A DNA stretch of 50,953 nucleotides. Origin: Escherichia phage Lys8385Vzw. The stretch lies in the sequence record MT225100. The stretch is one strand, 5' to 3'. Shown here piece by piece: positions 48,001 to 50,953 of the stretch. How positions within the stretch are numbered: position 1 is the stretch's first letter; each line of letters opens with the position of its first letter. A program made the position numbers.

Positions 48001-50953
48001 CAAAAGGTGTTCAGTGGATTGCTGGTCTGCTTGCTGCATGGAGAGCTACCGCAGCATGAAGATGATAAAAATGGACTGGAAATTTTTGCTGGTCTGGCTG
48101 ATTCCGTTTTTATGGGTGGTTGCCCGGTTAATTACTGCTATTAAGAGGTAAAGATGTCAGACAAACTCATAATGCTGGCGAAGGGCCTTTGTGTAATCGT
48201 CGGTATTTCATTTTCACTAATGCTGGTTGCTCTTTTTCTTTCCATAACCTGGATGGCGTTGACTTCGGCAGGGCTGGTGGGGTGAGCATAAACCGAATGC
48301 TTTCCGCGTTTACCGTTATTCTGCTGGTGGTCTGTAGTGCGCTGTGGCTGGCAACAGACCATTACCGTGATAACGCCATCACCTACAAAGCGCAGCGCGA
48401 TAAAAAAGCCAGAGAGCTGGAGCTGGCAAACGCAACCATTACTGACATGCAGCAGCGCCAGCGTGATGTTGCTGCGCTTGATGCCAGATACTCAAGGGAA
48501 TTAGCCGATGCGAGAGCTGAAAATGAAACTCTGCGTGCTGATGTTGCCGCTGGTCGTAAGCGCCTGCGGATCAACGCCACCTGCTCCGGTACCGTGCGTG
48601 AAGCCACCGGCACCTCCGGAATGGATAATGCAACCGGCCCCCGACTGGCAGACACCGCTGAACGGGATTATTTCACCCTCAGAGAGCGGTTGATGACAAT
48701 GCAGAAGCAACTGGAAGGGGCGCAGGAATATATCCGCACTCAGTGCCTGAATTAACAGAGCCAGCTTAATCGCTGGCTTTTTCATATCTGAATTTCATCG
48801 CGCATCTCACGCGCATATCACATCCCCGAGCCTTTCAGAAAGTTGAGCCTGAGAACTGTCGTATATGGTGGCGACCATCTCGGGGCGGCTTTTCTGTGAG
48901 ACAGGCTCAATTTTCTGAAAGGTAAGACGCTATGAACTATCCGACGATTGTTAACGGTATTGATTTCCGCGATCTTGTTTTTGTGACAGGCAACGAGCCG
49001 GTGACGGATACCCGAAAGGTTGCCGTAGCATTTGGCAAAGAACACAAAGATGTATTGCGGAAAACAAGAGCCGTTGTTCAACAATGCTCAAAAGAATTTG
49101 CAGAGCGCAATTTTGCGCTTTGCTATGAAAACAATGAGTTACAGAACGGTAAACCCCAGCCCATATATCGAATGACAAAAGACGGTTGGACGATGTTGGT
49201 ATTTGGTTTTACGGGGAAAGCTGCTATGACCTTTAAGGAAGCGTACATTCAGGCTTTCAACTGGATGGCTGAGCTTATTCAGCAAGGTCTGGCGAATCTG
49301 GAGGCGGAGCGCAACGCTGTAATGCTGGAGTACATGAAAGAGAAAGATGTCGCCAGTATGTCAGGTCGTTTGCTCAATCGCTGGGGCAGGGTGAAGAAGC
49401 CTCAGTTGCTGGCAAGGCTGGACAGGCTGGAGCAGCAGGGGCAGATTGCGTTACCCGGATTTGATAAAGGCATTTCAGCCTGACATAGCCATGCGCCGTA
49501 TCGTCGCCGTATCGTCGCCGTATCCCCGCATTAACAGAGACCGCAGCCCGACAGGGAGACTCCTCTACGAGAGTGTGCGGGATAATCAAAAACGATACAC
49601 ACCGGGGTTTACCGCGTTAACGGAGCGCGGCGTTGTCCCTCATGGTCGCTGGTCCGGTGCGATGGTGGAAGAAACCGGACGATGTGTTACCTCGCAAGCT
49701 CTGTGATGTCATGTGTCTGATTTGTGATTTAAGTCGGATAATTGTCGTTGCCATTAAGCAGAGGATTGATGACCGACAGGGTGGCATTGTTAGAATAAGA
49801 CTTATTCTTATCTGTGCCGGGAATGAAAATGAAAAGAAATCTTCCGTTAATTATTTTGTTGTCTTCTCTGGTTATGGGCTGTACGCAACATAAAACAGAT
49901 ATGCCCCGACAGTTGGTTAAGGCATTACCACAATATCCGGCCTATGCAGCGGCAAATTATATAAAGGGACGGGTTGATGTGAAGTTTGATATTGGTGCTG
50001 ATGGTACTGTCACCCGAATTGAGTTTATCCGTTCAGAGCCGCACCATTTGTTTGATGAGCAGGTTGTAAAGGCGATGGCAAAATGGCGATTTGAGAAGGA
50101 CAGGCCGTGTAAAGGCGTGAAGAAAACGTTTATCTTTAGTCCTTCTGCACCCTGATTATTTCATCAGAAATTAATTATCACTCTGTTGTTATTCTGTACA
50201 TCCCGGCAGGGTAAGTCTTGTTCCGTCGGATATGAAGATGAAATATTGTTGGAGGACAGTGGGTACCTGCTCCTGTAACCGAACGTTCATTTCTCGTTAT
50301 TTGTCATGCTGGCCGGGCGCAGATGCGTTGCATCTGTTGCCAGCCTTCTCCTGCAGGCTTCAATAACCCACGCTGAAAAGTTACCGGACCCTTTATGCTC
50401 AAGGGCTATGTTGATTTGTTCAATTATGTGATTGGGGAAACGGATATTGCGGGTTGTGGTTCTGCGGGTCCGGTTTTTCGATGACATTTTCTTTCCTCTG
50501 GTGACAAGTTATATGACGGGGATTTTACATGGCTGAGCTTCGTACACTCCAGAGCAGAATCAAAACACTGAATACCCGACGGGTGAATATTCTGAAGGGG
50601 GAACAGCGTCGTGTCAGTGGCAGTGCCCGGGTTTCCCTCAAGCGTCATATCTGGCTGAGGGATGCCGGGCAGTGCTGTCTCTGTGGTCGTGTGGTTGACC
50701 TCTGTGACAGTGAACTCGATCACCGCATTGCACTTCAGTTCGGTGGTGGTAATGAGGAGACGAATCTCTGGACGCTCTGCACCGAATGCCATCGACAAAA
50801 GTCTGCTCGTGAAGCGGCGGGTGGTATGCCGGACCCGACGCTGCCGGAGGTGTCCGGAGGTCATGGCAGGGCAGACGATATCATCGGACTGTGACCCGCC
50901 CCGGGGGGGATCATCCGGCGAAAAAAACGATCGCTCCGGACACCGCCCCCCCT

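Follow-up and report, generated by a model that had tools for sequence, protein, structure and literature searches.

Background

In bacteriophage T4, hairpins in front of gene e (lysozyme), soc, gene 49 and I-TevI sequester the Shine-Dalgarno (SD) sequence and so silence genes on read-through transcripts, and a late promoter inside the hairpin yields a shorter mRNA that is translatable. The lambda N leader and the early mRNA of T7 (R1.1 and other sites) contain RNase III sites at which cleavage can unmask a ribosome-binding site; such sites are not known to require upstream pseudoknot partners. Other structured RNAs lie 5' of antirepressor-type genes of temperate enterobacterial phages (C4 antisense RNA of P1/P7 immI, sar of P22, and IsrK of Gifsy-1 isrK-orf45-anrP) and govern access to the ribosome-binding site by means of trans or processed antisense RNA. 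Compact, covarying pseudoknotted folds with the SD in the 3' strand of a weak, mismatched basal helix are familiar from the SAM-II, preQ1-II and THF riboswitches, and 'boundary' or 'linker' sequences at lambdoid gene junctions have been proposed to promote modular exchange. Here we analyze a structured mRNA leader directly upstream of the Rha gene of Escherichia phage Lys8385Vzw (sequence record MT225100, 50,953 nt, one strand; this whole stretch is referred to below as the window).

The Rha leader resembles the T4 hairpins in being a phage intercistronic stem whose 3' arm carries the ribosome-binding site of the next gene, and in its frequent association with optional or homing-endonuclease-type genes. 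It differs from those simple hairpins in having seven helices and two pseudoknots, and in that no sigma-70-like promoter was found in or near it (48500-49700, by a scan that does not cover phage-specific promoter types). With the lambda N and T7 sites it shares a long imperfect intercistronic duplex with an asymmetric internal loop, although most members of the leader family carry several mismatches in that duplex. The position 5' of antirepressor-type genes in temperate enterobacterial phages, and the predicted control through ribosome-binding-site access, are shared with C4, sar and IsrK; the pairing partners of the Rha leader, however, all lie in cis within about 130 nt, and the Rfam models of C4 and isrK match the window at 34.6 kb only, not at 47.2 or 48.8 kb, where the two leader copies described below are located. 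Unlike the riboswitches that it resembles in its pseudoknotted fold and in the placement of its SD, the leader has no matching Rfam family and stands before regulators and nucleases rather than metabolic genes. As with the lambdoid linkers, a conserved intergenic block lies beside variable genes and chimeras are observed, but the linker idea covers sequence identity and not the compensatory base-pair changes that we report here.

Results

The inverted repeat upstream of Rha is the stem of an mRNA leader

A sequence-only reading of the window had singled out a long inverted repeat upstream of the Rha gene as a candidate operator or RNA structure controlling this copy of Rha. Both a repeat search of the window and RNA folding find this repeat, with arms of 21 nt each at 48831-48851 (CCTTTCAGAAAGTTGAGCCTG) and 48902-48922 (CAGGCTCAATTTTCTGAAAGG) that are 95% complementary and are separated by a spacer of 50 nt. 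The arm length, the spacer (given as about 50 nt) and the left arm were thus correctly read; the right arm had been set at 48903-48923, 1 nt too far downstream, and the distance to the ATG at 48932 is for that reason 9 nt and not the 8 nt then given. Twenty of the 21 positions form Watson-Crick pairs, and the remaining one (G48842 opposite T48911) becomes a G.U pair in + strand RNA, so that all 21 positions pair in the RNA. We calculate that chance would produce an inverted repeat of 21 nt with no more than one mismatch and arms within about 100 nt about 1e-4 times per 51 kb. The whole window has only five inverted repeats whose arms measure 16 nt or more and lie within 150 nt, and among the three whose arms reach 20 nt the one in the Rha leader has the highest complementarity. 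RNA folding and conservation analysis, which the sequence-only reading had proposed as a check, gave an unusually stable fold (-74.9 kcal/mol for a 205-nt + strand RNA, z = -4.75, with none of 200 shuffles folding as well) and arms that covary among relatives.

This repeat forms stem P1 of a structured + strand mRNA leader, conserved and about 130 nt long (approximately 48800-48931), that begins directly after the terminator of the Rz gene. The leader consists of a small hairpin (P0), a long bent hairpin (P1-P1b-P2-P3) and two long-range pairings (PK1 and PK2), seven helices in all, with coordinates as given in Table 1. The earlier reading therefore captured the hairpin but not the complete element, which reaches about 30 nt further upstream to take in P0 and the left strand of PK1. 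The SD of the Rha gene, AAAGG, is paired with CCUUU at the 5' end of P1, the arrangement of an SD-sequestering element, and in every subfamily the SD lies inside the 3' arm of P1, 5-10 nt upstream of the start codon. The leader has in addition the layout of a riboswitch-type element, namely a conserved higher-order fold 5' of a gene with an expression platform that overlaps the SD. The strands of the pseudoknots share no nucleotides with the hairpin, an argument in favor of a tertiary fold and against alternative structures of the classical kind.

Three further candidate features of the leader were considered and rejected. A kink-turn in the GUGAGA bulge breaks the tandem G.A rule, and the bulge pairs with the loop of P0; a local alternative hairpin (CUGUgagACAG) is not kept in the short variants or in the variants that we call sub4; and the sole leader ATG from which a leader peptide could start (48866, 17 codons) is missing from other subfamilies.

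Covariation supports the hairpin and both pseudoknots

We built a covariance model from 12 relatives, all of the type of the Rha leader (copy 2 of the window), and this model scores the Rha leader of the window at 131 bits. Over 105 distinct sequences, 90.9% of the cells in P1, P1b, P2 and P3 are paired, compared with 79.4% after shuffling of columns (a level of pairing reached by 0 of 500 shuffles) and 32-48% when the partners are slid against each other. Changes on both sides of a pair are found at 26 of the 34 hairpin pairs (P1, 21 bp; P1b, 4 bp; P2, 4 bp; P3, 5 bp), including 16 of the 21 in P1, where 91.7% of cells are paired. In P1b the exchange is between AGAA/UUCU and AGGA/UCCU (47 and 57 sequences), with GGGAA/UUCCC and GGCAA/UUGCC in the short variants; in P2 all four pairs have changed on both sides with 96% of cells paired; and in P3 the figures are five of five pairs and 95.5% (alignment A12).

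Complementarity in PK1 is maintained by 11 distinct haplotypes, among them CACAGAA/UUCUGUG, CGAGAG/CUCUCG, CUCAGAA/UUCUGAG, CCAAGAA/UUCUUGG, CGCAGAG/CUCUGCG, CCAAAGA/UCUUUGG (copy 1 of the window) and CCACCGA/UCGGUGG (P22), and native partners match better than swapped ones (P < 1e-5); the five core pairs of PK1 are 100% paired in alignment A12, each of them with double-sided changes. PK2 has at least five haplotypes (UCUCAC/GUGAGA, UCACAC/GUGUGA, UCGCAC/GUGCGA, UGCCC/GGGCA and CCGCA/UGCGG; permutation P = 2e-4), with 99.5% of cells paired in the same alignment. A second covariance model, which holds PK2, PK1 and P3 only, recovers the family on the strand of the gene only and has 97.6% of cells paired, compared with 76.2% shuffled and 34-59% slid, with double-sided changes at 16 of 17 pairs.

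The type of mismatch that is tolerated points to the same strand. When two columns with conserved mismatches and P3, which aligns poorly, are set aside, G.U occupies 59 cells in 16 columns and A.C 9 cells in 3 columns, as expected for a + strand RNA and unexpected for DNA symmetry or for an RNA of the opposite strand. Of the 105 sequences, 100 share a conserved C.A mismatch in lower P1, and the window copy is among the three that have a standard pair at this position (here C-G).

Two alignments gave weaker results for technical reasons. MAFFT with RNAalifold on mixed subfamilies (alignment A3) recovered only nine pairs, because indels shift the 3' arm out of register, and covariance-model alignments were used instead. 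In alignment A7 a count over fixed columns finds PK1 68% paired with an equal value at a slide of -2, the hairpin model misplacing the 3' strand of PK1 by 1-2 columns in one-third of rows; this ambiguity is settled by the anchor-free swap tests and by the pseudoknot-only model.

Some records annotate minus-strand open reading frames (ORFs) over the leader (SPN3UB gp70 and 720R6 URC09782), and small hypothetical proteins are annotated across it on the minus strand at 1476-1634 of L003 and 1467-1601 of L007. These are probably spurious, because the constraint across the leader acts on RNA base pairing.

A second leader precedes the antirepressor gene of the same window

The element is not specific to this Rha copy: a second, diverged leader (copy 1) precedes the antirepressor-like gene in the same window, and hundreds more precede other cargo genes elsewhere. 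Copy 1 is matched by the covariance model at 47248-47368 (38.3 bits, E = 4e-8) and has its parts in the same order as copy 2, namely terminator, P0 and then CCUUUCAG...CUAAAAGG, whereas the sequence in the middle of the stem differs between copies (GAUGAGCCCUG/CAGGGUUCAUC in copy 1 versus AAAGUUGAGCCUG/CAGGCUCAAUUUU in copy 2). The gene behind copy 1 has an ANT domain and no Pfam Rha domain; calling it the 'first Rha' was therefore a loose use of the name.

Distribution, cargo genes and natural variants

Matches to the 180-nt intergenic region, at 78-100% identity, are found in 149 phage records, including Stx phages, epsilon34, SPN3UB, HK106 and phages of Klebsiella, Enterobacter and Citrobacter, and two pattern scans of viral contigs returned at least 120 matches each. 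In the alignment of relatives the conserved block begins immediately behind a rho-independent terminator and reaches to the start codon, and in the upstream regions of 148 distinct relatives an intrinsic terminator and the small GC hairpin P0 stand 5' of nearly every copy. Counting only the subfamily that we call sub2, 916 of 5426 complete E. coli genomes (approximately 17%) carry the leader, in one to four places per genome. Among species-representative genomes, 30 of 48 pattern-scan loci were confirmed by the covariance model, and these fall in about 20 genera of Enterobacterales, plus four copies in metagenome bins assigned to other taxa. The four copies (L274 and L283 labelled Bacillota, L279 Collinsella and L258 Cellvibrionaceae) score 91-137 bits and probably represent mis-binned contigs of enterobacterial phages.

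The proteins encoded directly behind the leader are unrelated to one another (Rha in the window, T5orf172/GIY-YIG-like in epsilon34 and HK106, KilA-N in SPN3UB), and a near-identical leader haplotype is shared by T5orf172 of epsilon34, KilA-N of SPN3UB and Rha of 720R6. Pfam domains among 69 non-redundant cargo proteins are KilA-N (23), Rha (17), ORF11CD3 (15), P22_AR_N (7) and HNH_3 (7), with ANT, AntA and P63C (3 each) and T5orf172 and AP2 (2 each) less frequent. About half of 80 non-redundant upstream genes encode Rz-type spanins; many of the 80 have no informative Pfam match, and the rest of those that can be identified encode lysozymes, tail proteins and Q antiterminators, which are late-operon genes and place the cassettes in late operons.

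Two leader-plus-cargo cassettes are often present in one phage (L027, L299, L164, L204, L108 and L139), for example at 2745-2866 and 3243-3343 on the minus strand of L027 and at 2516-2634 and 4110-4211 of L299, the TOP10 prophage. Some pairs form tandems with a few hundred bases in between, with one member sometimes in the short 85-nt form that lacks P3, and such pairs look like an array of exchangeable cassettes. In strain TOP10 both copies lie within a Q-holin-lysozyme-Rz-Rha prophage region that is presumably derived from phi80.

The covariance model finds these two TOP10 copies, one of them the leader of a rha gene, and also the leader of P22 rha (L250, NC_002371; 1530-1649). The annotated GTG start of this gene, at position 1576 of L250, falls inside the structured leader; the start is probably the ATG at 1646 (SD, then ATG, MNELIANHDF...), in which case the deposited Rha carries about 23 spurious N-terminal residues.

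Natural variants affect both pseudoknots. A group of Stx2a phages (93.9% identity; L008, Stx2_EH1965) lacks one tandem unit of GCGCAT(C/A)TCAC, corresponding to 48800-48810 of the window, a deletion of 11 nt that takes away the loop of P0 together with its 5' arm, and hence the partner of PK2; a leader without P0 is a natural variant that may serve as a ready-made mutant. The relative L167 (2538-2656, + strand) is a chimera in which a 5' domain of copy 1 type (P0 and the left strand of PK1) is joined to the hairpin of another type, evidence of recombination at the conserved CCUUUCAGGAUGA junction. Its PK1 has 4 bp (as in two other sequences) and its PK2 has 3 bp (as in no other), making it the one sequence in which both long-range contacts are clearly broken.

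Genomic setting and comparison with Rfam

The end of the window is a lambdoid late region with the gene order holin, lysozyme, ANT/KilAC antirepressor, Rz, Rha, TonB_C-like (a small gene) and HNH (Table 1). The terminator hairpin after Rz is visible in the predicted fold, and its counterpart is annotated as 'rho-independent terminator' in epsilon34 and HK106. A short tandem repeat (cgccgtatcgt twice, then cgccgtatccc) lies just 3' of the Rha stop codon at 49495-49527 (+).

When 47500-50953 and 47150-47420 were searched with the 4227 covariance models of Rfam 15 at E <= 10, nothing above noise appeared: the matches were to models of miRNAs and snoRNAs and scored 11-20 bits, where thresholds of 35-130 apply. 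At the Rfam gathering threshold the whole window has matches at 34.6 kb and at 43.3-43.5 kb only, neither of them a leader copy. Those at 34.6 kb are isrK (34602-34678, +, 62 bits) and C4 antisense RNA (34700-34787, +, 75 bits), which indicates that the same prophage also has a different, already known antirepressor control system; the others are STnc100 (43274-43487, +, 191 bits) and the anti-GcvB small RNA AgvB (43489-43548, -, 56.6 bits). No description of the leader was found in the searchable literature (full-text searches with leader sequences, and KilA-N or Rha combined with RNA-motif keywords). We file the leader as an undescribed family within a known kind, the structured translational leader.

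Table 1 Coordinates of the Rha leader (copy 2), of the second leader (copy 1) and of neighboring features in the window
Feature	Position	Strand	Details
P0 hairpin	48800-48814	+	GCGC 48800-48803 with GCGC 48811-48814, loop ATCTCAC 48804-48810; predicted, in nearly all relatives
PK2 5' strand (a), in P0 loop	48805-48810	+	UCUCAC; complement of bulge GUGAGA 48896-48901
PK1 5' strand (b)	48824-48830	+	CCCCGAG, immediately 5' of P1; complement of CUCGGGG 48879-48885
P1 5' arm	48831-48851	+	5' end CCUUU (48831-48835) is the anti-SD
P1b 5' strand	48852-48855	+	AGAA, pairs with UUCU 48892-48895
P2 5' strand	48858-48861	+	GUCG, pairs with CGGC 48886-48889; one U.G pair
P3 apical hairpin	48865-48878	+	AUGGU, loop GGCG, ACCAU; not in short 85-nt variants
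PK1 3' strand (b')	48879-48885	+	CUCGGGG, just 5' of P2 3' strand
P2 3' strand, UU, P1b 3' strand	48886-48895	+	CGGC 48886-48889; UUCU 48892-48895
PK2 3' strand (a')	48896-48901	+	GUGAGA, 6-nt 3' bulge between P1b and P1
P1 3' arm	48902-48922	+	Contains SD AAAGG 48918-48922
Rha cargo gene	48932-49483	+	183 amino acids; Phage_pRha and ORF11CD3 domains
Copy 1 leader, diverged	47229-47363	+	Before ANT/KilAC antirepressor gene; from covariance model and fold
Copy 1 P0	47229-47247	+	Loop CGCAC 47236-47240 pairs with bulge GUGCG 47331-47335 (PK2)
Copy 1 PK1	47254-47260 with 47311-47317	+	CCAAAGA with UCUUUGG
Copy 1 P1	47262-47280 with 47336-47355	+	
Copy 1 SD	47351-47355	+	AAAGG; ATG 47364
Copy 1 terminator, after lysozyme gene	47201-47227	+	GGCACC, GTAAT, GGTGCC, then TTTGTCATTT
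Lysozyme gene	46557-47090		
ANT/KilAC antirepressor gene	47364-48059		Inserted between lysozyme and Rz genes
Rz gene	end at 48755		
Intrinsic terminator after Rz	48760-48782	+	GCCAGC 48760-48765, loop TTAATC, GCTGGC 48772-48777, T run 48778-48782

Discussion

We consider it fairly probable that the leader is a cis-acting translational control element that hides the ribosome-binding site of the cargo gene. In every subfamily the 3' arm of P1 ends with the SD, and the folded leader is therefore expected to block binding of the 30S subunit: with AAAGG paired to CCUUU the ribosome could not load, and translation of the downstream gene would be held low or made conditional. We see in the leader a portable regulatory module common to moron-like cassettes (terminator, leader, then a gene for a DNA-binding protein or nuclease), which sit in the Q-dependent late operons of lambdoid and P22-like prophages and whose transcripts would arrive by read-through from the late promoter. 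The fold might be opened or locked by RNase III cleavage of the long duplex, by a host factor such as IHF or by a small ligand.

Several points weigh against this proposal or limit its reach. We infer translational repression from the anatomy of the leader alone, and the source of the transcript is an assumption: late-promoter read-through is assumed since no promoter was found, and inspection by eye of candidate positions in several relatives likewise revealed no conserved -10/-35 hexamers. The covariance-model alignments were fitted to the structures that they were used to evaluate, although the anchor-free swap tests were not. Most relatives have the conserved C.A and one or two further mismatches in lower P1; the P1 of the window is unusually perfect by comparison, and the strength of SD occlusion therefore varies across the family. 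The left strand of PK1 abuts P1 without a linker, so that PK1 and a fully formed P1 can be present at once only with a sharp bend of the hairpin at the bulge, and a nested fold that contains PK1 and PK2 and lacks P1 is approximately 25 kcal/mol less stable than the hairpin. On geometric grounds the PK2 junction could let P1b-P2-PK1 (about 17 bp) fold back alongside P1 (21 bp), for which the lengths are compatible; were the fit strained, PK1 would compete with the weak, mismatched lower 8 bp of P1 and so expose the SD. The pseudoknots may either lock the closed state or open the SD helix.

Other explanations have to be set against occlusion of the SD. A riboswitch-like or factor-sensing aptamer, in which the pseudoknot core binds a small molecule or protein and thereby sets the stability of lower P1, would account for a complex seven-helix fold maintained by covariation, for the A-U-rich lower 8 bp of P1 with their conserved C.A mismatch, and for one leader serving cargo proteins too diverse to be its common regulator, and regulation of rha by IHF has been reported (PMC4936722). 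We nonetheless regard it as doubtful, as the cargo genes suggest no ligand or binding partner, the downstream genes are neither metabolic nor transport genes, and few unpaired nucleotides are invariant besides the pairing strands. Ranked below it, and in our view unlikely, is an RNase III processing or stability site, at which cutting of the approximately 25-bp duplex of P1 and P1b would separate the cargo cistron from the lysis mRNA and would free the SD or destabilize the message. The duplex does lie between cistrons of a long late transcript, and in the window copy its 21 contiguous pairs, with four more past the asymmetric 3' bulge, extend over about two turns (at least 20 bp); against this, most family members have two or three mismatches in P1, and cleavage of a plain duplex leaves the compensatory upkeep of P0, PK1 and PK2 unexplained. 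Such cleavage is compatible with SD occlusion and may be its trigger.

The remaining explanations fare worse. That one leader is found with many cargo genes, and that chimeric leaders (L167) and tandem cassettes exist, is what one would expect of a mosaic joint, a linker kept as homology for cassette swapping or as a homing site for HNH or T5orf172 proteins, but homology preserves sequence and would not yield compensatory double changes in seven helices, and the clear chimera has weakened PK1 and PK2, which fits selection against such joints; we think this very improbable. We give still less chance to a DNA-level site (an operator or a cruciform) to which the cargo protein or some other repressor would bind. 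Cargo proteins are DNA-binding and inverted repeats are typical of operators, yet 50-90 bp separate the two arms, the haplotype of the leader is no guide to the cargo family (unrelated DNA-binding proteins with T5orf172, KilA-N and Rha domains share one leader), G.U is about six times as frequent as A.C among tolerated pairs, and the two covarying long-range pairings cross the hairpin in pseudoknot topology, which makes sense only for a folded single strand. Of the two possibilities offered by the sequence-only reading, the operator is thus not supported, and the RNA structure is supported by the compensatory changes in the arms, by the preference for G.U and by the SD in the 3' arm. We give the least credence to a terminator or attenuator, or to the terminal inverted repeats of a small transposable element. 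There is indeed a stable intergenic hairpin, but the stem is followed by GUAAGACGCUAUG with no U run, and a terminator scan found only the Rz terminator (48759-48778); the element is present in one to four copies per E. coli genome, no target duplications or dispersed copies were seen, and in the viral contigs and phage records each copy examined stands immediately 5' of an ORF of the same orientation.

Beyond hiding the ribosome-binding site, the leader might represent a new class of sensor RNA, whose double-pseudoknotted, aptamer-like core answers to a host factor or small molecule by setting how stable the weak SD helix is. We put this forward tentatively, as a possibility of low probability; if it is true, the state of the sensor would decide translation of antirepressor-like, KilA-N or HNH morons. 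According to a secondary source, rha of P22 is a late-operon gene regulated by IHF (PMC4936722). Because the leader precedes rha both in P22 and in the TOP10 prophage, it could be the target through which IHF status controls Rha.

Structured leaders that hide ribosome-binding sites are already known; the present one is a seven-helix, two-pseudoknot fold that has no Rfam entry yet is common. Its presence identifies a family of cassettes that can be exchanged (terminator, leader, and a KilA-N, Rha, Ant or HNH gene), the biology of these genes being poorly understood, and it corrects gene starts, as at P22 rha, where the annotated start lies within the leader. The Rha phenotype was reportedly described in 1985-1995, and for the old question of the host dependence of rha expression the leader offers a concrete target that can be mutated.

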